Positions 3,344 through 18,394 are shown, numbered from the stretch's first letter. The stretch is DNA of 49,852 nucleotides from an uncultured archaeon (GCA_964640865.1 CAZXIU010000001.1:1-49852); one strand, 5' to 3'. The notes: generated by a model from the letters alone, not told the origin. Numbers and translations are program-made.

Positions 3344-3757
3344 ATGAAAGGGCAAAGCCGCGTCTTCGAGCAGGTTCTTCTTTTCGGCATTGGCGTTGCA
3401 ATATTCGTCTCCAGCTTTGCCATATTCCAGATGTATCAGACGGAATACACGCTCACAGCGTCAGATGACCAGATAAGGGGGATAAGGGACATTGTGTACA
3501 ACCACATAACAGAGATGACTGTAAACGAAGACCTTAATTCAAGCATAGTGATAAAGATACCGAAGCAGATAGGAGGAGAAGGATACAGCATATCCGTTGA
3601 CGATGAAGACCTTACAGTAAGGACGGAAAAGAGCGGGAAGCTCGCATCAACTGAAATGACATCACTGAGCATGTTATATTCTTTCTCCGGAGAAACAAGA
3701 AGCAGCGGCGGTGAAATTATAATTTATAAGAGGGATTATAATATTATTATAGAGTAA
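3344..3757 (+). CDS. Prepilin-like protein, class III signal peptide with Gln at +1
   Basis: MKG/QSRVFEQVLLFGIGVAIFVSSFAIF has a KG-Q cleavage-type motif followed by a hydrophobic helix. Confidence 0.6.
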   Translation: MKGQSRVFEQVLLFGIGVAIFVSSFAIFQMYQTEYTLTASDDQIRGIRDIVYNHITEMTVNEDLNSSIVIKIPKQIGGEGYSISVDDEDLTVRTEKSGKLASTEMTSLSMLYSFSGETRSSGGEIIIYKRDYNIIIE

Positions 3758-3762
3758 CAGGC

Positions 3763-5619
3763 ATGGATTGGGACGCGCTGATTCCATGCTATTGTGGTTT
3801 TATGAAACTCAGGCTTCCGAAGGTTAAAAAGAAGGTCACAAGCGATACCAAGCCCAGTCCGAGGAACATTGCAAAACGTCTTCTTAAGGGTTATAAATTC
3901 AAGAACATGAAGAGGCCAGGCAAGCGGAGACCGCAGGAGTTTCCTGAGGGATACGGGCCTCCGCTTCCGATAACGCAGAAACTTAACATAGAGCTTGAGC
4001 AGAAGGCTGCGCGCGAAGATAAAGGACTTTTCGAGGAGATAAAATCCAAGGATGGCATAATGCTTCCAACAGGAAAAAACATACTTCCAGGAGCCAGATT
4101 CGACATACTGAATGATTCAGAGGAACTGCGTTCCATAAACATGAAGTATCCTCTCATACCACAGCAGCCCACGGAAAATGAACAGGTGATGGCATATGCG
4201 AATATCCGCTGGGACAATAACCTAGGTTCGTTGCTGTATAATGTTGTGGAGCCGAAACTTTCACCGGAAGACATGAAACTCGTTGAGGAAATAAAGAAGG
4301 ATATAGAGGACCGGCTTGATGTCGATTTCTCAAAGCTTGGTGATGTCAGGGCAAAGAAGCTCCTGAGCGATGAAATAAAAAACACGCTTGCGAATTTTCC
4401 TTCTGTAAGCATGGCCAAGGTGCCTGCCATACAGTACAATATAGAGAAGGAAATATTCGGTCTTGGTGTCATAGAGCCGCTGATGAAGGATCCCGAGATA
4501 GAGGATATATCATGCGACGGTGTTAACATACCGATATACATATACCACAGGAATCCGAAGTTCGGCCCGCTCAGGACAACACTCAGCTTCAGTGATTCAA
4601 CTGAACTTGACAGGTTCATACTAAAGCTTGCGCAGAAATGCGGAAAATCAATATCAGTCGCAGACCCGCTGCTGGACGCAGCGCTTCCGGATGGTTCCAG
4701 GGTGCAGTGCACAATGGGAACAGACATAGCCAGGAGAGGCTCGAACTTCACCATAAGGAAATTCACGTCATATCCACTGACGCCGACACACATGATGCAT
4801 TACAAGGCTGTGGACAGCATGCAGCTTGCCTACCTGTGGATGGCCATAGAGAACGGTAAGTCCATACTCATTTCAGGGGGAACAGCAACCGGAAAGACAT
4901 CCATGCTCAATGCGCTCTCGCTTTTCATACGGCCAAACCTGAAGATACTCTCAATAGAGGATACACCTGAGCTGAGGCTGCCTCATACACACTGGATTCC
5001 GGAGGTGGCGCGTTCACCTCTCTCGGTAAAGGGCAAGCTTGGAGAGGTCACGCTTTTCGATCTGCTTAAATCAAGCCTCAGGCAGAGGCCGGACTACCTG
5101 GTTGTCGGCGAGGTGCGAGGAAAGGAGGCCTTCGTGCTGTTCCAGCAGATGGCCACAGGGCACCCATCACTTGCCACAATACACGCAGCGTCACTGACAC
5201 AGCTTATAGACAGGCTGGTCACACCCCCCATATCACTGCCTCCGGCACTCATAGAGAACGTTGACATAATCATATTCCTCCAGAGGGTGAAAGTCAAGGG
5301 AAAGAGCACACGAAGGGCCACGGAGATAATTGAAATAATAGGATTCGACAAGGACAGGCCCATCAGCGCAAAGATATTCGAATGGACTGCTGTAAAGGAT
5401 GTTTTCATATCCGAAAGCAGGTCGAAGGTGCTGCAGTCCGTGGCGAGGATGTCAGGTCTTGAGGAAAACACAGTGCAGGCGGAAATACTAAGAAGGAAGA
5501 AGGTTCTTGAATGGATGCTCCGGAGCGAGGTTTATGATTATAATGAGGTTGGGCGGATAGTGAGTGAATATTACCTTAATCCTGAAAAAGTGATGACACT
5601 CATAGAAGATTCCGTCTAG
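3763..5619 (+). CDS. Type IV pilus/archaellum-family secretion ATPase (FlaI/ArlI, TadA, EpdL-like; VirB11/GspE superfamily)
   Basis: Walker A GGTATGKTS, Walker B-like DYLVVGEVRG, and a His-box region ATIHA. It has a Lys/Arg-rich N-terminal extension. An alternative start is M14 (3802). Confidence 0.85.
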   Translation: MDWDALIPCYCGFMKLRLPKVKKKVTSDTKPSPRNIAKRLLKGYKFKNMKRPGKRRPQEFPEGYGPPLPITQKLNIELEQKAAREDKGLFEEIKSKDGIMLPTGKNILPGARFDILNDSEELRSINMKYPLIPQQPTENEQVMAYANIRWDNNLGSLLYNVVEPKLSPEDMKLVEEIKKDIEDRLDVDFSKLGDVRAKKLLSDEIKNTLANFPSVSMAKVPAIQYNIEKEIFGLGVIEPLMKDPEIEDISCDGVNIPIYIYHRNPKFGPLRTTLSFSDSTELDRFILKLAQKCGKSISVADPLLDAALPDGSRVQCTMGTDIARRGSNFTIRKFTSYPLTPTHMMHYKAVDSMQLAYLWMAIENGKSILISGGTATGKTSMLNALSLFIRPNLKILSIEDTPELRLPHTHWIPEVARSPLSVKGKLGEVTLFDLLKSSLRQRPDYLVVGEVRGKEAFVLFQQMATGHPSLATIHAASLTQLIDRLVTPPISLPPALIENVDIIIFLQRVKVKGKSTRRATEIIEIIGFDKDRPISAKIFEWTAVKDVFISESRSKVLQSVARMSGLEENTVQAEILRRKKVLEWMLRSEVYDYNEVGRIVSEYYLNPEKVMTLIEDSV

Positions 5620-9913: not shown

Positions 9914-10642
9914 ATGAATAAGGCTGTTGACGAATTTGAGCTCCAGAAAGAGCACCTAATGAAGAACATCATAGGAGAGATAGCAGTTTCGGGTGAACCG
10001 AACAAAGCCATCAAAAAATGGCGTTCTCTCTTCAGGGTTTCCCAGAAGGATCTCTCAAAGAATATCGGTGTGACATCGTCAGTGATATCAGACTATGAAT
10101 CAGGGAGAAGAAAATCCCCTGGCATCATGTTCCTGAAGAGGTATGTGGAGGCTCTCATAAGGATGGATGAAAAAAGCGGGGGGGAGGTCCTCAGGGTTTT
10201 CATAGGCACAGACGAGGATAAGCCTGTCTCTGCCGCAATACTCGATATCAAGGAGTTTGATGACGGAATGGGTGTTGATGTCTTCTGCAGGAAAATAGGC
10301 GCAAAAATACTCACAGGCGCATCCACAGACCGTAACATATACGGGTACACTCTCATAGACTCTGTCAAGGCCATAACCGAGCTTTCGTTCACAGAGCTCA
10401 AGAAGCTGTACGGGGTAACTGCGCAAAGGGCGCTTGTATTCACGAACATAACAACAGGAAAGGGTCCCATGATTGCCATAAAGGTCGCCAACCTCAAGCC
10501 CGCGCTGATACTCCTTCACAACATAAACGAAGGAGACGTGAGTTCAGTTGCAAAGAACATCGCTGATGTCGAGGGTGTTCCCCTTGCGATATGCAGCAGC
10601 AATATTGAGGTCTTTATAGAAAAGCTCAGGACCGTTTCCTAA
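9914..10642 (+). CDS. XRE-family HTH transcriptional regulator with conserved archaeal C-terminal domain (COG1395-like)
   Basis: HTH segment WRSLFRVSQKDLSKNIGVTSSVISDYESGRRKSP followed by about 170 aa of extra domain. Confidence 0.7.
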   Translation: MNKAVDEFELQKEHLMKNIIGEIAVSGEPNKAIKKWRSLFRVSQKDLSKNIGVTSSVISDYESGRRKSPGIMFLKRYVEALIRMDEKSGGEVLRVFIGTDEDKPVSAAILDIKEFDDGMGVDVFCRKIGAKILTGASTDRNIYGYTLIDSVKAITELSFTELKKLYGVTAQRALVFTNITTGKGPMIAIKVANLKPALILLHNINEGDVSSVAKNIADVEGVPLAICSSNIEVFIEKLRTVS

Positions 10643-11313
10643 ACAGTTTTAAGTGTTTCGCAATGAACCTTGCTGCCTTCTACGGTAACTATTCCGTAAT
10701 AACCTGAATAAGCTGGGCCTGGATAGAATATGGTTGTCTTTCCTATCATATCAACACCCCTGTTTTCATGTATATGAGCGGAAATGTTAAGGATGGGTAC
10801 ATTTTTATCTATAACCTTCGCAATTTCAGCGGAACCGACATGCTTCTTTTCCAGCTTGTCGAGTGATGTCCCCTTAGGGGGGGCATGTGTGATGAAAATC
10901 CACGGCTTTTTTATATCCTTCAACAGGGCATCAAGAGCTTCTTTCGTGTCATCCTCAGTTGGCTCGAACAGTGTATTGAAGGGTGTTTCAGCGCCGCCCC
11001 AGCCAACGAATGTTATGCCGCCAAAAACCGATGCCTTGTGATGGGCATTGACACCGTACTCTTCAAATATATCCAGTATCTCGAATGGGTCGTGGTTGCC
11101 CGGGACGCATAGTACCGGCTTCTTTGGTATCATAAGCTTCTGTATTACAACATCCGCTATTTCAAGCTGCGTGAAATTCGGTGTTATATCGAACATGTCC
11201 GTGAAATCTCCCTGGGACACTATAATGTCATAATCTTTGTTTTCCAGATCATCCATTATCTTCTGGAGCTTTCCTATCTTTCCGTGTATGTCACCTATAA
11301 CAGCTATTTTCAT
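10639..11313 (-). CDS. Calcineurin-like metallophosphoesterase
   Basis: MKIAVIGDIHGK (DxH), QGDFTD (GDxxD), VPGNHD (GNHD/E), ITHAPP and SAHIHEN motifs. ORF 10639..11385 has a hydrophobic N-terminal extension that I consider non-coding; the start is taken at M25. Confidence 0.8.
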   Translation of the reverse strand: MKIAVIGDIHGKIGKLQKIMDDLENKDYDIIVSQGDFTDMFDITPNFTQLEIADVVIQKLMIPKKPVLCVPGNHDPFEILDIFEEYGVNAHHKASVFGGITFVGWGGAETPFNTLFEPTEDDTKEALDALLKDIKKPWIFITHAPPKGTSLDKLEKKHVGSAEIAKVIDKNVPILNISAHIHENRGVDMIGKTTIFYPGPAYSGYYGIVTVEGSKVHCETLKTV

Positions 11314-11389
11314 TAAACCACCGAATACTGTTATTAGTGCAATAAAGGATAAAAACGTTTGTTTAAAATCACTATACACCCACACGCTT

Positions 11390-11402
11390 GTTTCCTGTGG
11401 AG
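11390..11402 (-). repeat. mini-ORB (reads CTCCACAGGAAAC on minus strand)
   Basis: Plus strand reads gtttcctgtggag. It is the inverted copy of the 11561/11578 repeats. Confidence 0.6.
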
Positions 11403-11480
11403 TTTATGAAATAAAATTTTATGACTTATTATATTATATATTATAATATAACATAGTTATATATACTTATAATAGCGTTT
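11403..11480. other. AT-rich putative duplex-unwinding element
   Basis: tttatgaaataaaattttatgacttattatattatatattataatataacatagttatatatacttataatagcgttt. It is almost devoid of G/C and is bracketed by oppositely oriented ORBs. Confidence 0.55.
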
Positions 11481-11494
11481 TTGCTTCCAAAAAA

Positions 11495-11515
11495 TCTCCA
11501 TACGAAACACAGGGG
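11495..11515 (+). repeat. ORB with G-string (TCTCCATACGAAACACAGGGG)
   Basis: TCCA-N3-GAAAC core followed by ACAGGGG. It has the same architecture as the two elements at 15089 and 15189 on the other strand. Confidence 0.55.
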
Positions 11516-11560
11516 TGGTGCTGTTCTGCTATTTACTTTTTCATTAAAAACAGAAAAAAG

Positions 11561-11590
11561 TTCCACAGGAAATAATTTTCCACAGGAAAC
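11561..11590 (+). repeat. Two tandem mini-ORBs (TTCCACAGGAAA at 11561 and 11578)
   Basis: Exact 12-mer repeated with a 17-bp period. Confidence 0.65.
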
Positions 11591-11595
11591 GGAAA

Positions 11596-11625
11596 GCTTA
11601 TAAACTTCTTAATTTTATTATAATT
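11596..11625 (+). promoter_or_regulatory. TATA-like elements (cttataaac / ttttattataatt) upstream of orc1/cdc6 ATG 11637
   Basis: AT-rich boxes 12-40 nt upstream of the start codon. The exact box is not resolvable by eye. Confidence 0.35.
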
Positions 11626-11636
11626 CCAGTGATTTT

Positions 11637-12860
11637 ATGGCCCAGTCATCCCTTAGCGAAATATTCGAATCTTATACCAATACAGTAGGTCTTTTCAAAG
11701 ACAAGGGAGCGCTTTCAACTGATTTCAGTCCTGCCAATATACCCCACAGGGAAAAGAAGATAGAGGAGCTCGCGTATATGCTGGCTCCTGTTCTCAGGAA
11801 CGAAAAGCCCTCGAATATTTTTATCTACGGAAAGACAGGCACAGGAAAAAGCCTCTGTATAAAGAAGGTGACGGATTCCCTGGAAGAGGCAGCTGAGAAA
11901 AGCGGCCGGAACGTCAAGATAATGTACATAAACTGCAAGATGGGAAAAGTCGTCGACACACAGTACCGGCTCCTTGTAAAGATACTTTCAATGCTTGGCG
12001 AGGACGTGCCTTTCACAGGCCTTCCCACAAACACCCTCCACAAGAAGCTCAATGAGAAGCTTGCTGAACGGGGAGGAAACATAATAATGGTCCTTGATGA
12101 GATAGACGCTCTTCTGGAGAAGATAGGGGATGACATACTCTATAACATAACACGAATAAGCCAGGATGTCCCGAACACACAGATAACCGTTGTCGGCATA
12201 TCCAACAAGCCGACATTCGTGGACAGCCTCGACCCAAGGATAAGGTCATCGCTGTCAGAAGAGGAGATGGTTTTCCCTCCTTACAATGCGAATGAAATAA
12301 AAGACATTCTTCAGGCAAGGGTGGAGACAGCTTTCAATGAGAATGCAGTTGATTATGGCGCCATAACCAAGTGCTCCGCGCTCGCAGCGCAGGAAAACGG
12401 CGACGCAAGAAGGGCGCTTGACCTCCTGAGGGTTGCCGCAGAATTGTGCGAGAGGGAGAAATGCAAAAAGGTCAGCGAGCGGTTCGTCAACAGCGCACAG
12501 GAGAAACTTGACAAGGACAGGCTGATAGAAATAATAAAAGCGCAGCCCAAGCAGTCAAAACTTGTCATAATATCAATGCTTAATCTCTACAAGCAGGAAA
12601 AGAAGGCCGTGCAGACAGGCGATGTGTACAACCTATATGAAAAGCTCGCGCACGCCAACGGGCTTAAGGCGCTTACACAGAGAAGGGTTTCCGACCTGAT
12701 ATCAGAACTTGACATGCTCGGTGTCATAAACGCCTCGGTTGTGTCCAAGGGAAGATACGGAAGGACGCGAAAGATAAACATACAGCTGAACAAGGGTCTT
12801 GTCTCTGTTCTGAAGAATACACTGGCAGGCGAATTTACTGAGGATTTTATTAATTTTTAA
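11637..12860 (+). CDS. cdc6: Orc1/Cdc6 replication initiator
   Basis: AAA+ Walker A GKTGTGKS, Walker B VLDEID and sensor region GDARRALDLLR. The C-terminal winged-helix portion and the 407 aa length are typical. Confidence 0.93.
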   Translation: MAQSSLSEIFESYTNTVGLFKDKGALSTDFSPANIPHREKKIEELAYMLAPVLRNEKPSNIFIYGKTGTGKSLCIKKVTDSLEEAAEKSGRNVKIMYINCKMGKVVDTQYRLLVKILSMLGEDVPFTGLPTNTLHKKLNEKLAERGGNIIMVLDEIDALLEKIGDDILYNITRISQDVPNTQITVVGISNKPTFVDSLDPRIRSSLSEEEMVFPPYNANEIKDILQARVETAFNENAVDYGAITKCSALAAQENGDARRALDLLRVAAELCEREKCKKVSERFVNSAQEKLDKDRLIEIIKAQPKQSKLVIISMLNLYKQEKKAVQTGDVYNLYEKLAHANGLKALTQRRVSDLISELDMLGVINASVVSKGRYGRTRKINIQLNKGLVSVLKNTLAGEFTEDFINF

Positions 12861-12874
12861 CATACTTCTTTTAC

Positions 12875-13810
12875 ATGGAAAAACAGACCATTATCCGCGA
12901 ACTGATGGCAAAAGGCATAATGGTGACACCCGATATACTTGAAATGGCCCTCAGGGACGGCATTGATCAGGTCGTTTCAAGCAGGCATGATGTGGTGATG
13001 TCATCAGTCAGGACAACCGAAAGGACAAGGAATGCAGCAGAACCAATAAAATGCTCTTCACTTCTTTCTGAATCCAAGAAGGAATATACAATTGAAGATG
13101 CTGTCAAAAGCAACTACAGAAGGTATGAGTCGCTGAGACGCATGCTCCTGCGGAAAGCAGACGCGGTTTCCATAAAAAACATAACGAATGCAAAAAGCCG
13201 CATAACAGTCGTGGGGATGGTGAAGGAAAAGAAGGATTTCGGCTTTGTGCTTGAGGACAGCACAGGAGAGGCCACTGTCAAGAGTGATGCCAATGTGGAA
13301 ACAGACGATGTCATAGGTGTTAACGGATGGGTAAGAAACGGTGTTTTCACAGCAGATGACGTTTTTTATCCGGACATTCCGATGGACCGTGTGGTCGGCA
13401 CCATCGAAGGAACGCTTCTTCTGAAGAACACAGGCAGCATCCCTGACGTGAATGCTGATGTTACTGTGACCCCTGATTCTTTCATAACAGGCGGAAAAGA
13501 GGCAATGACATGCACACCCAACACCATCACAGTGGAAAGAGGGGGGAAGAAGTTGATAATAGTTGTGTATAAAACAGACGACCCTGTGAATAAAAATGAT
13601 GCCATCAGGTGGCTGAGAAGGCGCTTTATGCCGAGCAGTGAAAGAATTTTCGACAGCATGTATGTCCTCGACCCGGTGCCTGACATCTTATGGATATCGT
13701 CCAAGAACGATTACTGGTGTGATAATTACAAGGGCACCACAATGGTGTCTTTCGGTTACGGAAGGAGTGCTCTTGTAGATATGAAAACACGTGGTATAAA
13801 ACAACTCTGA
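12875..13810 (+). CDS. DNA polymerase D small-subunit (DP1)/B-subunit-like protein with truncated, apparently inactivated phosphoesterase domain
   Basis: The N-terminal helical module IIRELMAKGIMVTPDILEMAL and the OB-fold block ITVVGMVKEKKDFGFVLEDSTGEATVKS...DDVIGVNGWVRNGVFTADDVFYPDIP are collinear with DP1. Where DP1 has SD(I/V)HVGS this protein has LLLKNTGS. The GDxxD and GNHD regions are absent, and GH(V/T)H is replaced by SSKND in VLDPVPDILWISSKNDYWCDNYKGTTMV. It is 311 aa, against about 480-620 aa for DP1. Confidence 0.6.
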   Translation: MEKQTIIRELMAKGIMVTPDILEMALRDGIDQVVSSRHDVVMSSVRTTERTRNAAEPIKCSSLLSESKKEYTIEDAVKSNYRRYESLRRMLLRKADAVSIKNITNAKSRITVVGMVKEKKDFGFVLEDSTGEATVKSDANVETDDVIGVNGWVRNGVFTADDVFYPDIPMDRVVGTIEGTLLLKNTGSIPDVNADVTVTPDSFITGGKEAMTCTPNTITVERGGKKLIIVVYKTDDPVNKNDAIRWLRRRFMPSSERIFDSMYVLDPVPDILWISSKNDYWCDNYKGTTMVSFGYGRSALVDMKTRGIKQL

Positions 13811-15036
13811 TGTTTGTGGAAATATTACTGTCTGCTTTATTCGGGTTTTCGTTAGGTCTTTTTGCAGGGCTCATACCCGGAATACATCCAAATACCATTA
13901 TGGTTATCATTGGCTCGTCGGCCATCTTATCCGGCACAGCCAGCACAGAATGCATCCTTGCGTTTGTTGCATCCCTTTCAGTGACCAACAGCATAGTCAA
14001 CTTCATACCATCAGTTCTTACAGGCGCGCCTGAATCTGATACATGTCTCTCTGTATTGCCTGCCCACAGGTTCCTTATGTCAGGACGCGGCTATGAGGCG
14101 CTGTACTTGACAGTTGCCGGCGGGGTTTTCGTCACGCTTCTCACAGTTGTTTCCCTTCCATTCCTCCTCTGGGCGGTTCCGGGAATTTACAGCCTGATAT
14201 CAGGCTATATGCACTGGCTGCTCATTGCGGTTCTTTTGGTTCTCCTTATTAATACGCGCTCCAGGCGCGCGCTTTCCCTTTTTGTTTTCATTATCACAGG
14301 GATTTCCGGGTTGCTGCTGCTTTCAACATTTCACCAGGAAACCGTGCTGTTTCCATCGCTTACAGGGTTGTTTGCAGTGCCTGTCCTTGCTCTGAGCGCA
14401 GGAACATTCAGCTTTCCTAAGCAGAAGATACGGACACCAAAGAACATAAGCATGAAAGGAGGCTTCTCAGGATGGCTGTCAGGCATATTCGTTGGCATGC
14501 TTCCCGGCATAGGCTCAGCCCAGGCAGCTGTACTCTCCAATAGTATAGTAAAGGGAAATGAACGGGATTTCATGATGTCCATTGGAGGCATAAACACGTC
14601 GAATGTCATGTTTTCATTCGTAATGCTGTTCACACTCTCCAAGACAAGAACAGGGGCATCCGCATTCATATCAGGCATTTCAGGGGCCATAGACATTTAC
14701 GGACTCTCTCTTCTCATGGCAGTGTCCGTGCTGTCGTGCATGCTTGCAGCTGTTTTTACTCTCTACGCAGGAAGGCTGTTCACGAGAAACATACACAGGG
14801 TTAACTACAGGAAGATGAACTTCACAATAGTTGCATTCCTTGTAGCCATTACATTCATCATAACAGGAATATATGGCCTCTTGATAATGGTCTTATGTTC
14901 ACTTATCGGCGTGTGCAGTTCATATATGGGTGTAAAGCGCATGTATATGATGGGATTTCTCATGCTGCCGACAATAATATATTTCTCCGGTTTAGGGGAT
15001 GCGGCCAGTTTATTCAGTCTCTTGATTCCGGTTTGA
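13810..15036 (+). CDS. Polytopic membrane protein, TctA/DUF112-like
   Basis: About 10-11 TM helices with repeated G(L/M)(I/L)PGI(H/G) motifs (GLFAGLIPGIHPNT, GIFVGMLPGIGSAQA). The start overlaps the upstream stop (TGATG). Confidence 0.6.
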   Translation: MFVEILLSALFGFSLGLFAGLIPGIHPNTIMVIIGSSAILSGTASTECILAFVASLSVTNSIVNFIPSVLTGAPESDTCLSVLPAHRFLMSGRGYEALYLTVAGGVFVTLLTVVSLPFLLWAVPGIYSLISGYMHWLLIAVLLVLLINTRSRRALSLFVFIITGISGLLLLSTFHQETVLFPSLTGLFAVPVLALSAGTFSFPKQKIRTPKNISMKGGFSGWLSGIFVGMLPGIGSAQAAVLSNSIVKGNERDFMMSIGGINTSNVMFSFVMLFTLSKTRTGASAFISGISGAIDIYGLSLLMAVSVLSCMLAAVFTLYAGRLFTRNIHRVNYRKMNFTIVAFLVAITFIITGIYGLLIMVLCSLIGVCSSYMGVKRMYMMGFLMLPTIIYFSGLGDAASLFSLLIPV

Positions 15037-15088
15037 GCGAAAAGCGCTAAGTTAACGCGTAGGAGCTTAACTTCATATGACGATGTTA

Positions 15089-15110
15089 CCCCCCTGTTTC
15101 CACTGGAAAC
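15089..15110 (-). repeat. ORB with G-string (minus strand GTTTCCAGTGGAAACAGGGGGG)
   Basis: Plus strand reads cccccctgtttccactggaaac. It is a near-textbook archaeal ORB core plus a G-run. Confidence 0.6.
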
Positions 15111-15188
15111 CTCTTGATTTTATAGAAAACGATACCAATAGGCCTATGTGAACAACCCATGAACAAAAACGCCACAAGAGTGTTCAGA

Positions 15189-15210
15189 CCCCCCTATTTC
15201 ATATGGAAAT
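15189..15210 (-). repeat. ORB-like element with G-string (minus strand ATTTCCATATGAAATAGGGGGG)
   Basis: Plus strand reads cccccctatttcatatggaaat. It lies exactly 100 bp from the 15089 element in the same orientation. Confidence 0.5.
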
Positions 15211-15233
15211 TCACGGGCAATATATACATATTC

Positions 15234-15261
15234 ATTTCATCTGGAAATTTTCATGGAAAAC
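15234..15261 (-). repeat. Two degenerate mini-ORB-like dyads (atttcatctggaaat, tttcatggaaaac)
   Basis: TTTC-N-GGAAA dyads adjacent to a short AT-rich stretch (caatatatacatatt). Confidence 0.35.
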
Positions 15262-15291
15262 CGGTAACATTAGAGCATGTGTGAAGATGAA

Positions 15292-17943
15292 TTAACTGAC
15301 TGCCACTGAAATGGGTCCCTCTGGTGTGGAAAATTTTAAAGCTCCCCCGCATGAACACTTTCCTGAGAGAGGCGGCCTTGCTGACTTCATTCCACAGGAC
15401 ATGCATATAAAGCCGCTTACATCAGACAGTTTGCCCTTTATCACGGGTTCTTCACATGCTTTCTTGCTGTTGTTTATGACTTCAAAAAGACCCATCTGCT
15501 TTCCCGCGCCGAGAAGCTCGTCCCTGCTTATGCCTATTGCATTGAAAATCCTCTCAAGAGGCGGAAGCAGCTGGTTGTCTATGTAATACTTCGAGTCAAT
15601 TGAAAGTCCGTTTTCCCTGACAAAATTCGGGTCCTCTGCCCTTTTGGAAAGCATCTCCATTCCCTTGACTATCACGTATCCTATCCTGTCGCCGACACCG
15701 GGAAGGTCCATATCATTTCTTTTTTCCATTTTTTTCACAACCTCGACGTGCGGCTGGACACCGGCATATTTTTCAGGTCTTCTGGTGAGGGTTTTCGTTA
15801 TGACAAGCTTCTCAATGTCAACGTCCCCGTCAAGAAGCCCCTTCACCACGTCCTTGAAATATGAAACAGCTGCCTTGGTGTCGTTTTTCTTGAGTATGAT
15901 TTCTATTATCTCTTTCATTGTTTCTCCTGTAAGCTCGCACCAGTCACGCCGCACGGTCTCTATACCCTTCATCACAATGTCGTCCTTCCATTCACCTGTT
16001 TTGTCCCTGAACATGGACCACCCCATGTAACGCTTCTTGGTCAGGGGAAGAAAACGCTTGAACAGCTTTTCGAATTCCAGTTCCATTATACCGGGAAGCC
16101 GTTCAGTCATCTTCTTCCCGATGTCTTTTCCGATTTTCTCCGCCTCTTCCATGCTTTCCGTAGGAACCTTTATCATTACGGAATCAGTATCACCATAGAC
16201 TACCTCATAACCGAAATCCTCTTCCATGGCCTTGACTGTACTGTGTATGGTTTCACGCCCGAAAGCTGTGACAGAACTGGCTATAGCGACATTGTATATC
16301 TTTGCCCTCGTGTAGCCGAAATATCCGTAGAAAGCATTAGCCAGCGTCTTTATCGCGAACTGCTTCAGGTCGAGCATTTTTCTGGTCTTCTCATCAGCGT
16401 TCCTCGCCATCTTCTTGACCTTGCTTCTCTCTTCCATAAGGTTCTCGAGTATACTCGGTATTACGCCGCGTCTGACACTGGGCTTGACGAACATTGAGCC
16501 GTTTGGTGTGGTTATGTGTTCCACATCTTCATTCCCAATAAGAAGCGTGGTCGGGCATATATTATATGTTCGTATAAGTGAAGGATACATGGACTTGAAG
16601 TCAAGCACAAGCACCATTGAATGGAGACCTTTCTTTGGCTCTATGACGAAGCCGCCTTTAAGGTCCTTGCTTTCATCCTCACCGTTACCATTGGTTCTCT
16701 CTGCTATCTGCTCATTGTTCTTGGATGGTATGATAAAGCCTTCCTTGTTGAACACCTTCAGGTAGTAATTTTCTATTCTCTGGCTTTCCCCTCCTTCCAG
16801 TACATCATTCAGGAGCGAACCTGATATTTTTGAAAGCGCGATGTACTTGTCCATGAGGTCAAGCTTCGTGATAAGCTTGAGTGCAAGTATGCTGTCCTGA
16901 AGGCAGTAATCAGCGAGTATCTGGTACTTTTCCTGGGACCCCCTCCAGAACTTCCCTATCTCTGACTTCTTGACGTCTTTCTTCTCCTCTCCTATGAGGG
17001 CTTTCGAAACAAAGTCCAGTCCGTATCTTTTCAGGTTCCAGCCCTTCTTTATCATTGAGAATGAATCCGCAATTATGCGGCCGGTTATTGTTATTCTGTG
17101 CCTTCCACCAAAGACATCATCCCTCACTGACTTGGTTTTGCATCTTCCGAATACGGGCCGTATATTATTCTTTTCCATCCTCTTCAGTATGTAGGGAAGA
17201 TCGTATCCGACAATGTTGAATCCTGTCAGGACGTCAGCGTCATATTCATTGATGATTTCCATGAAACGAATGAGCATGTCCTTTTCACCTGAGAGCGCTT
17301 CTATGCCATCTCCCGGCCTTGTGGAAAGTATAATTGATTTTGTTCTCCTGTAATCATCTGAGAATACAAGCGATATCATCGCAACAGGGTCTGTTTCGGA
17401 ATCAGGCATAGAGCCTTCATTCTTTCCCACTGTCTCTATGTCGAAAGCGAGATACCTGAGCGGAGCATCCTCCTCGGTGTCAATTATTTCGAATTCCTTT
17501 ATCTGGACAAGCCTCTGCGCTGATACGCTTGTTGTGCTTATGCCATTGCTTTCTTTCGTGCTTATCCAGCGCATTCCGCCTATGTCCGAGTCATTCATCC
17601 ACCTGTACTTGAAAAGTATATCAGCCTCGTATGTGCTTATGCCCTTCTTCTTCAGTGCTTCACGCACCTCCACTGTCTTGGCCGGATTCTTCAGTGTTAT
17701 CTTCCAGACATCGCGCGGCTCCTGATATCCCATGGGAAGGGTTCTTTTCACTTTTTCAACATTGTGTATGCTCGGAAGTCCTTCAAGGCTTTCATTTATG
17801 TCATCGCTCGCTGCATAGAAATACGGAAGGAATCCCTCATAGAAACCGCAGACACTTTTTCCTTCCCTGTCCTTTCCGAATATACGCAGAACCGGTCGCT
17901 CATTAACCATTACATAGTCGACATCCATTATCTGAAATTCCAT
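15292..17943 (-). CDS. polB: Family B DNA polymerase with C-terminal Cys4 zinc-ribbon extension
   Basis: Exo I FDIET, pol motif A DFKSMYPS, motif C YGDTDS and KKRY-type LTKKRYMG. About 60 aa follow the usual thumb end (...ERIFNAIGISRDELLGAGKQMGLFEV) and contain CMSC-x12-CSC (residues 847-865, nt 15349..15405). Confidence 0.92.
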   Translation of the reverse strand: MEFQIMDVDYVMVNERPVLRIFGKDREGKSVCGFYEGFLPYFYAASDDINESLEGLPSIHNVEKVKRTLPMGYQEPRDVWKITLKNPAKTVEVREALKKKGISTYEADILFKYRWMNDSDIGGMRWISTKESNGISTTSVSAQRLVQIKEFEIIDTEEDAPLRYLAFDIETVGKNEGSMPDSETDPVAMISLVFSDDYRRTKSIILSTRPGDGIEALSGEKDMLIRFMEIINEYDADVLTGFNIVGYDLPYILKRMEKNNIRPVFGRCKTKSVRDDVFGGRHRITITGRIIADSFSMIKKGWNLKRYGLDFVSKALIGEEKKDVKKSEIGKFWRGSQEKYQILADYCLQDSILALKLITKLDLMDKYIALSKISGSLLNDVLEGGESQRIENYYLKVFNKEGFIIPSKNNEQIAERTNGNGEDESKDLKGGFVIEPKKGLHSMVLVLDFKSMYPSLIRTYNICPTTLLIGNEDVEHITTPNGSMFVKPSVRRGVIPSILENLMEERSKVKKMARNADEKTRKMLDLKQFAIKTLANAFYGYFGYTRAKIYNVAIASSVTAFGRETIHSTVKAMEEDFGYEVVYGDTDSVMIKVPTESMEEAEKIGKDIGKKMTERLPGIMELEFEKLFKRFLPLTKKRYMGWSMFRDKTGEWKDDIVMKGIETVRRDWCELTGETMKEIIEIILKKNDTKAAVSYFKDVVKGLLDGDVDIEKLVITKTLTRRPEKYAGVQPHVEVVKKMEKRNDMDLPGVGDRIGYVIVKGMEMLSKRAEDPNFVRENGLSIDSKYYIDNQLLPPLERIFNAIGISRDELLGAGKQMGLFEVINNSKKACEEPVIKGKLSDVSGFICMSCGMKSARPPLSGKCSCGGALKFSTPEGPISVAVS

Positions 17944-18073
17944 GAAAATTCACTTGGATAAGAGATTGATTTCAACAAATAAAAACACCAATGTTCTTCG
18001 GTGGCTATAATGAAAAACCTATGTTTGACAGTATGCTTGAAATACATTTAAAACGGCGGTGCATTTGTTTATT

Positions 18074-18394
18074 ATGAGAATAAATCCGAAGCAGCTTGAG
18101 CGTGCGATGAAGCAGATGGGAATGCAGACCAAGCAGATAGAAGCGGAAGAAGTCATAATCAGGACATCTGAGAAGGACATAGTCATAAGCAATCCCAATG
18201 TCACTCTGATGAATGCCATGGGGCAGGAATCATACCAGATAGTGGGGGATGCCGAGGAAAGGCCAAGAGGCAGGTTCGTGGACGAAGACGTCAAGATGGT
18301 CATGGAAAAAACAGGCGCCAGTGAGGAAGAAGCAAGGAAAGCCCTGGAAGATGCCGGGGACATAGCGACCGCGATTCTCAGCCTCAAGAACTGA
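18074..18394 (+). CDS. nac: Nascent polypeptide-associated complex protein (archaeal NAC alpha)
   Basis: MRINPKQLERAMKQMGMQTKQIEAEEVII... is a NAC domain. The C-terminus is UBA-like (SEEEARKALEDAGDIATAI). Confidence 0.88.
   Translation: MRINPKQLERAMKQMGMQTKQIEAEEVIIRTSEKDIVISNPNVTLMNAMGQESYQIVGDAEERPRGRFVDEDVKMVMEKTGASEEEARKALEDAGDIATAILSLKN

Follow-up and report, generated by a model that had tools for sequence, protein, structure and literature searches.

A probable chromosomal origin with initiator and two-subunit, eukaryote-like replicase genes in a Candidatus Aenigmatarchaeota archaeon

In a stretch of DNA of 49,852 nucleotides from an uncultured archaeon (GCA_964640865.1, CAZXIU010000001.1:1-49852; "the window" below means this whole stretch), the block between positions 11386 and 17943 is very probably the part of the chromosome in which a Candidatus Aenigmatarchaeota archaeon carries its replication origin, its initiator gene, orc1/cdc6, and the genes of a two-subunit, eukaryote-like replicase. 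The catalytic subunit would be a family-B DNA polymerase (PolB) that ends in a zinc ribbon of the DP2 type, and its partner would be "mini-DP1", an inactive and shortened homologue of DP1 and of the polymerase B-subunits. The original prediction, made from the sequence alone, had proposed six elements in this block: an origin with origin recognition boxes (ORBs), orc1/cdc6, a DP1-like gene, a translationally coupled membrane protein gene, a second ORB array in the opposite orientation, and a convergent PolB gene. Each of them was found at its predicted position in our map of the open reading frames (ORFs). The same prediction saw in the two proteins an archaeal analogue of the eukaryotic architecture, and this view is supported by the DP1 homology, the DP2-type tail, and the conservation of both.

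The arrangement had been thought to be undescribed, which is not the case. In 2020, Kazlauskas et al. (NAR; PMC7544198) defined a PolB group, B6, that falls inside the clade of Pol delta-like enzymes. According to their report, the PolBs of its Aenigmarchaeota subgroup, B6-aenigma1, carry a single metal motif at the C-terminus, which is closest to DP2 Zn-III; most Aenigmarchaeota lack DP2, and the DP1 of Aenigmarchaeota is inactive. A eukaryote-like PolB-DP1 pairing was proposed. In 2025, a study in Nature Ecology & Evolution (PMC12680538) described the Aenigmatarchaeota tail as a degenerate, shorter form of the DP2 C-terminal domain (CTD; DP2CTD) and reported, from yeast two-hybrid experiments, that in the Aenigmatarchaeota and the Baldrarchaeia alike the tailed PolB is bound by DP1. 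A two-subunit PolB-DP1 replicase is thus already known for this phylum, and because it has been published, the window, which is an instance of B6-aenigma1, adds an example and not a discovery. A PolB with a borrowed PolD zinc finger and a dead DP1 is the archaeal arrangement most like eukaryotic Pol delta, alpha, and epsilon, and current scenarios for how the eukaryotic replisome arose make use of it. To this the window adds anatomical detail (a second subunit of about 300 amino acids (aa), a ribbon that follows an apparently intact PCNA-interacting protein (PIP)-like box, and genes lying at the origin between two conserved sets of ORBs), and the locus is a compact candidate for biochemical reconstitution.

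The window belongs to Candidatus Aenigmatarchaeota, the phylum of the B6-aenigma1 type. A scan of a genome collection with the mini-DP1 alignment gave five loci, three from Candidatus Aenigmatarchaeota and two from "uncultured archaeon"; one Aenigmatarchaeota locus encodes a mini-DP1 that is 91% identical to that of the window, and one is a complete 742-kb chromosome. The names attached to the PolB homologues at the National Center for Biotechnology Information (NCBI) are likewise Aenigmarchaeota; a cluster look-up returned other accessions from Aenigmarchaeota, and the published B6-aenigma1 exemplar, OIN85950, was not among them. Because the genes of the window serve chromosomal housekeeping (thermosome, H+-PPase, STT3, PPDK-like, SecD/F, and UDP-sugar enzymes), the polymerase locus lies on no obvious mobile element. 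Scans of the 49.9-kb window revealed no tRNA genes and no Rfam family at the gathering threshold.

A shortened DP1 homologue and a tailed PolB

The 311-aa product of the gene that follows orc1, for which a DP1-like nature had been predicted, is a homologue of DP1 and the B-subunits, with a domain of the DP1 N-terminal (DP1N) type and an oligonucleotide/oligosaccharide-binding (OB) fold. The NCBIfam DP1 model NF003118 matches its residues 2-172 (E=2.5e-17). Among structures in the Protein Data Bank (PDB), a profile of eight mini-DP1 sequences matches those of DP1 (E=3.5e-10), and a profile of 105 sequences matches the DP1 of T. kodakarensis (6knb_A, E=1.7e-19), with positions 7-172 aligned to DP1 residues 3-261 and positions 234-296 to residues 431-497. 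An AlphaFold model (AF2) from a deep alignment has a predicted local distance difference test score (pLDDT) of 92.2 and a predicted template modeling score (pTM) of 0.80. When this model was compared with the PDB by Foldseek, the top 46 matches were all DP1 or B-subunits of Pol epsilon, delta, alpha, or zeta, including 9f2a_A (E=3e-14, TMq 0.60), 5vbn_A (8.6e-12), 6tny_B (5.5e-10), and 4y97_C (1.3e-9), and the ranking was unchanged with an earlier model from a shallower alignment. The protein can be divided into a DP1N-like helical N-terminus (1-40), the OB fold (about 109-164), and a remnant of the calcineurin-like phosphoesterase (PDE) fold (about 179-311). Its three N-terminal helices are modeled at pLDDT >90, the motif IVxxLLxxGxLxSPxxLE in this helical domain is conserved across the mini-DP1 family, and the OB fold is followed by a PD(I/V)P junction, in which P166 never varies and D167 and P169 hardly vary. 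It should be mentioned that a Pfam search by itself would wrongly have "refuted" this homology: no PDE or DNA_pol_E_B match was obtained in mini-DP1, and its sole Pfam match, DUF1223, was sub-threshold and was rejected as spurious.

The loss of the phosphoesterase motifs, also predicted, is confirmed, but its nature is different from what had been supposed, in that the PDE fold has been largely deleted and not merely mutated. Between the OB fold and the C-terminal segment, mini-DP1 has about 60 residues as against about 165 in DP1, and therefore the PDE half bearing motifs I-III has been deleted; with about 100 residues gone, only a remnant of the fold is left, and the overall match to DP1 stands at the above-mentioned TMq of 0.60. 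The set of five metal-binding motifs of active DP1, a proofreading nuclease (DxH, GD, GNH, H, GHxH), is not preserved. The single histidine in the window protein, H38, lies in the N-terminal domain, outside the PDE remnant, the position of the GHxH motif V (GHVH in DP1) reads SSKN, and the GNH motif occurs in none of the 80 mini-DP1 family members listed. Because the PDE domain is about 100 residues short and only one histidine is present, mini-DP1 cannot be a nuclease.

Mini-DP1 belongs to a large family of uniform size, about 300 aa. A word-indexed search had returned only eight relatives, and the impression of a rare family was rejected as an artefact of sensitivity after an exhaustive HMMER search found 916, including 166 representatives at E<=1e-30. 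The best 150 of the 916 are all 160-380 aa long, which indicates that the shortened form is the family norm and not a local pseudogene. At this size, mini-DP1 may be the smallest known B-subunit, a minimal docking platform that consists of DP1N, the OB fold, and half of the PDE sandwich.

Judged by its motifs, PolB is catalytically intact and Pol delta-like. The exonuclease motifs (Exo I FDIET, Exo II NIVGYDLPY, and Exo III YCLQDS) and the polymerase motifs (A DFKSMYPS, B KTLANAFYG, and C YGDTDS) are all preserved, and the best PDB match is human Pol delta (6s1m_A, E=3.9e-118), with the Thermococcales PolBs close behind. At the end of the canonical PolB body there is a PIP-like box, through which PolB would bind PCNA; of the 120 closest PolB homologues, 106 have a motif of the form Qxx[LIM]xx-hydrophobic. 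A variable linker of roughly 20 residues separates this box from the ribbon, and the order of box, linker, and ribbon suggests that the ribbon was added onto an intact PCNA-binding C-terminus.

The zinc ribbon that the original prediction attached to PolB was also found, with its four cysteines in the pattern CxxC-x12-CxC. A profile of seven tails has the Zn-III finger of DP2 as its only significant match (6knb_B of T. kodakarensis, residues 1127-1164, E=3.1e-8; 6hms_B of P. abyssi, E=3e-6), and each of the seven tails is matched, always at one and the same C-terminal position, by four DP2 models of NCBIfam (best E=2.9e-6). Tails with four cysteines are present in 119 of the 120 closest homologues, 117 of them with CxxC-x(9-13)-CxC and two with CxxC...CxxC, and in all 10 loci examined. 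By these profile comparisons, the PolB tail is a homologue of the DP2 Zn-III finger.

Two sets of origin recognition boxes

The region upstream of orc1 shows the arrangement expected of an archaeal oriC, in which inverted ORBs surround an A+T-rich duplex unwinding element (DUE) beside orc1/cdc6 (Table 1). In an alignment of the origins of relatives, the left ORB is kept on the far side of the DUE, the DUE contains the conserved core ATATTATAATATAACATAGTTATAT, and the full ORB is kept in six of seven loci. The promoter-proximal mini-ORB and a TATA-like box are conserved as well, and the oriC elements align in these seven loci despite a mini-DP1 identity of only about 40%. When the window was searched for the ORB pattern TTCCACNGGAAA with at most two mismatches, 37 matches were obtained, whereas 100 shuffled sequences gave 14.9 +/- 4.4 and none of them reached 37; the three exact matches all lie inside the two intergenic regions of the block. 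Orc1/Cdc6 would bind upstream of its own gene, at the ORBs on either side of the unwinding element, and replication would fire from there.

The mini-ORBs adjoin an orc1 promoter-like element, AAAGCTT(A/T)TAAAC, and the promoter-proximal one directly touches this box, which resembles a transcription factor B recognition element (BRE) and TATA box upstream of orc1 (11560-11610). This contact suggests that orc1 is autoregulated by Orc1 at the promoter-proximal mini-ORB.

The second array, at the 3' flank of PolB, has the predicted opposite orientation, with two full G-string ORBs on the opposite strand (15088-15110 and 15188-15210). Distal ORB 1 is close to invariant in seven loci and carries, outside the classical ORB, a conserved 17-nt extension (TAACATCGTCATATGAA on the minus strand); distal ORB 2 is also conserved in the seven loci. 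The pair as a whole is near-invariant across 39 and 28 nt, although the neighboring proteins are only about 40% identical, and the distant genomes at loci L013 and L014 have G-string ORB pairs both at the PolB 3' flank and upstream of orc1. By contrast, the additional mini-ORB-like repeats of this region were seen only in the window and in its close relative L008. By these sequence comparisons, both ORB arrays are phylogenetic footprints and not random, and Orc1/Cdc6 probably binds the conserved pair 3.5 kb away too.

The proximal set resembles the oriC of the Sulfolobus/Pyrococcus type, in which inverted G-string ORBs flank an A+T-rich element upstream of orc1 and mini-ORBs stand at the promoter. 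The window differs in having a second, strongly conserved pair of extended ORBs, which lies 2-3.5 kb away at the PolB 3' flank, across the orc1/mini-DP1 operon from the first set, and has no A+T-rich element. Across the Aenigmatarchaeota, two putative Orc1-binding modules, a classical oriC and an extended ORB pair, may bracket the initiator/mini-DP1 operon. The distal pair could form part of a bipartite or looped origin, or it could be an Orc1-dependent element that couples the initiator and replicase genes. Taken jointly, the putative second Orc1-binding module that always abuts the PolB 3' end and mini-DP1 as a minimal B-subunit are possibly new, a claim that we make tentatively and at somewhat less than even confidence.

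Gene linkage, proposed mechanism, and alternatives

As the original prediction led one to expect, the linkage of orc1, mini-DP1, and PolB recurs in relatives together with the PolB tail. The orc1 and mini-DP1 genes form a tight operon in every locus examined (in the window, the mini-DP1 ORF starts 14 nt past the end of orc1), wherever a locus is long enough to show linkage, the tailed PolB gene is no more than a few kb from them, and all 10 loci have both the tail and mini-DP1.

We propose that a proofreading-competent PolB, whose native C-terminus after the PIP-like box has been extended by the linker and the DP2 Zn-III ribbon, would act as the catalytic subunit, and that its ribbon would dock in the groove of mini-DP1 between the OB fold and the remnant PDE fold. 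This docking is proposed because of the structures of PolD and Pol alpha/epsilon and the published two-hybrid results for the phylum. In PolD, the Zn-III loop docks with two arginines in an acidic groove at the OB/PDE interface of DP1, a 20-residue Zn-III peptide by itself binds DP1 with nanomolar affinity, and the CTD of Pol alpha and that of Pol epsilon dock on their B-subunits with the same geometry (PMC6355029). DP1N binds the C-terminal domain of Gins51, as Dpb2 binds Psf1 (PMC9023282). Since mini-DP1 retains the DP1N-type helices, it is likely an adaptor that ties the polymerase to GINS/CMG, like DP1 and Dpb2. PolB would then supply both polymerization and proofreading, and mini-DP1 no nuclease.

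Several observations weigh against the reading of the block as an origin with a two-subunit replicase. The basic KxRRxP loop, which contacts DP1 in PolD, is degenerate, being KSARPP in the window and SYRRPP, FYPRVP, or TYSIPP elsewhere in the phylum, where there are variants that have no arginine. The helical bundle of the DP2 CTD, another DP1 contact, is absent from the PolB tail: PolB ends 10 residues past the ribbon (844-873 of 883), and only positions 42-78 of the tail profile align to DP2. The distal ORB array, at 60% A+T, lacks an A+T-rich unwinding element. The DP2 survey spans the 50-kb window, in which there is no DP2 and no ORF of at least 1000 aa, and the absence of DP2 is given for "most", not all, Aenigmarchaeota (PMC7544198); on this published pattern, for which PMC12680538 is a second source, DP2 would be missing from the genome of the window as well.

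The degenerate loop and the missing bundle would also fit a mini-DP1 that is not the partner of PolB but by itself an adaptor for GINS, primase, or RPA, or that works with a residual DP2, the ribbon binding DNA or another protein. We consider this improbable, because in the two-hybrid experiments the Aenigmatarchaeota DP1 binds PolB-DP2CTD but not canonical PolBs (PMC12680538), the tail and mini-DP1 are found together in all 10 loci, and the conserved residues of mini-DP1 are largely shared with DP1 at the OB fold and where this fold meets the PDE domain ((L)EDxTG, PD(I/V)P, and (V)PD(I/L)). An even less probable explanation, which we rejected, concerns the stand-alone metallophosphoesterase at 10639-11385, which might be the split-off nuclease half of a DP1 that was divided and not inactivated. 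This enzyme has all five metal-binding motifs and keeps its place beside orc1/mini-DP1, as does the HTH_3 protein, in every related locus throughout the phylum; in L014 it comes immediately downstream of mini-DP1 and has the same orientation. However, no DP1-specific similarity is seen in its sequence: the top PDB matches are aq_1956 (E=1e-3), MJ0936, and Mre11/SbcD, and none of the DP1 models of NCBIfam matches it. Mini-DP1, moreover, keeps PDE strands of its own, which line up with the C-terminal portion of the PDE domain in DP1, and therefore this domain shrank in place.

A broader objection is that the cluster reflects inherited synteny and is not a functional island. The adjacency of orc1 and DP1 would then be a remnant of an ancestral euryarchaeal oriC-cdc6-DP1-DP2 operon, the genes for PolB, the TctA-family membrane protein, the nascent polypeptide-associated complex (NAC), and the phosphoesterase would merely lie nearby, and the ORB arrays would serve the origin with no link to the polymerase genes. 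In Pyrococcus, orc1 and DP1 are adjacent next to oriC, as in the window, and a cdc6-DP1-DP2 operon beside oriC is established. The TctA gene, whose position is variable, is clearly a passenger, and L005, L013, and L014 have a different order of genes around orc1/mini-DP1, the result of rearrangement. Against this, no locus has PolB more than a few kb from orc1/mini-DP1, including those in which the mini-DP1 identity is as low as 25-30%, and the distal ORB pair always abuts the PolB 3' end, also in L013 and L014. Inherited synteny is in our opinion unlikely, though it deserves real weight; it concerns the locus as a unit only and is compatible with a two-subunit polymerase.

Known replicases and neighboring genes

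Compared with B6-aenigma1 by its published description, the window shows no essential difference: the phylum is the same, PolB is Pol delta-like, a single Cys4 motif resembles DP2 Zn-III, DP1 is nuclease-dead, and DP2 is reported to be absent. The PolB3-DP2CTD of the Baldrarchaeia (PMC12680538) is likewise a PolB fused to a DP2-derived CTD that binds DP1, in a lineage without DP2, but this CTD is full-length and DP2-like, with its helical bundle (the former "B6-aenigma2", with two metal motifs), whereas the window PolB has the ribbon only and about 10 residues after it. The eukaryotic CTD-B-subunit pairs of Pol delta, alpha, and epsilon (6TNY, 4Y97, and 5VBN) also combine a PolB bearing a C-terminal zinc module with a catalytically dead second subunit of the DP1 type, in which a helical domain at the N-terminus is combined with the OB and PDE folds. 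Their CTDs, however, contain a helical bundle and two metal motifs, CysA and CysB, in place of the one ribbon of the window, and their B-subunits retain a full-size inactive PDE fold (about 430-530 aa, against 311 aa). Archaeal PolD (P. abyssi 6T8H and T. kodakarensis 6KNB) is the source of both modules, with the same DP1N, OB, and PDE architecture and the Zn-III finger in common (the sequences compared include GFICMSCGMKSARPPLSGKCSCGG). In contrast to PolD, the window system has no DP2 double-psi-barrel catalytic core, its DP1 is inactive and shortened, and polymerization and proofreading would both reside in PolB.

The deletion of about 100 PDE residues, the origin-proximal gene linkage, and the ORB arrangement are not described in the available portions of the text of PMC7544198 and PMC12680538. 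Several features may be incremental additions: the extent of the PDE deletion, the PIP-like box before the ribbon, the distal ORB pair with its 17-nt extension, and the constant company of an apparently active metallophosphoesterase and the HTH_3 protein. None of these incremental features was found described in those parts of the literature that were available.

Table 1. Positions of the features of the block and its neighbors in the window
Feature	Position	Strand	Details
HTH_3 protein	9914-10642	+	242 aa
Stand-alone metallophosphoesterase	10639-11385	-	248 aa; PF00149 E=3e-19; PF14582 E=9e-13
Intergenic origin region	11386-11636		upstream of orc1
Left ORB, inverted relative to the others	11390-11402	-	CTCCACAGGAAAC; one mismatch to the mini-ORB core
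A+T-rich DUE	11403-11495		85% A+T vs 53% in the whole window
Full ORB with G-string	11496-11518	+	CTCCATACGAAACACAGGGGTGG
Two tandem mini-ORBs	11560-11573, 11577-11590	+	TTCCACAGGAAA twice; exact matches at 11561 and 11578
orc1/cdc6 initiator	11637-12860	+	407 aa; Pfam Cdc6_C, Cdc6_lid, AAA_22; TIGR02928 E=1.2e-125
mini-DP1, inactive shortened DP1/B-subunit homologue	12875-13810	+	311 aa; NF003118 E=2.5e-17
TctA-family membrane protein	13810-15036	+	408 aa; PF01970 E=3.6e-39
Second intergenic region, distal ORB array	15037-15291		255 nt
Distal ORB 1	15072-15110	-	GTTTCCAGTGGAAACAGGGGGGTAACATCGTCATATGAA; ORB core, G-string, and conserved 17-nt extension
Distal ORB 2	15187-15214	-	GACCCCCCTATTTCATATGGAAATTCAC; ORB core and G-string; 100 nt from distal ORB 1
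Extra mini-ORB-like repeats	15234-15262	-	mini-ORB at 15234-15249
PolB, convergent	15292-17943	-	883 aa; PF00136 E=8e-113; PF03104 E=2e-34
C-terminal Cys4 zinc ribbon of PolB	15325-15414	-	GFICMSCGMKSARPPLSGKCSCGGALKFST; residues 844-873; C847/C850/C863/C865
PIP-like box of PolB	15475-15501	-	KQMGLFEVI; residues 815-823; end of the canonical PolB body
NAC gene	18059-18394	+	just past the PolB 5' end

The membrane protein gene of the TctA family had been described as coupled to the DP1-like gene, and in the window its ATG does share one base with the stop codon of mini-DP1 (TGATG). It is not, however, a conserved part of the unit: the gene is 97 nt away in L001, other genes lie between in L005 and L014, and in L013 it is not found between mini-DP1 and PolB. 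Because its position varies among relatives, we regard it as a passenger gene and have rejected it as a component of the replicase.

The NAC gene adjoins the PolB 5' end also in L001, L005, and L014, a conserved replication/translation neighborhood. A few kb upstream of the origin region of L001, there is a gene for a 371-aa LAGLIDADG_3/helix-turn-helix protein (3488-4603 of that locus, minus strand) that does not occur in the window and is possibly a homing-endonuclease-like gene.

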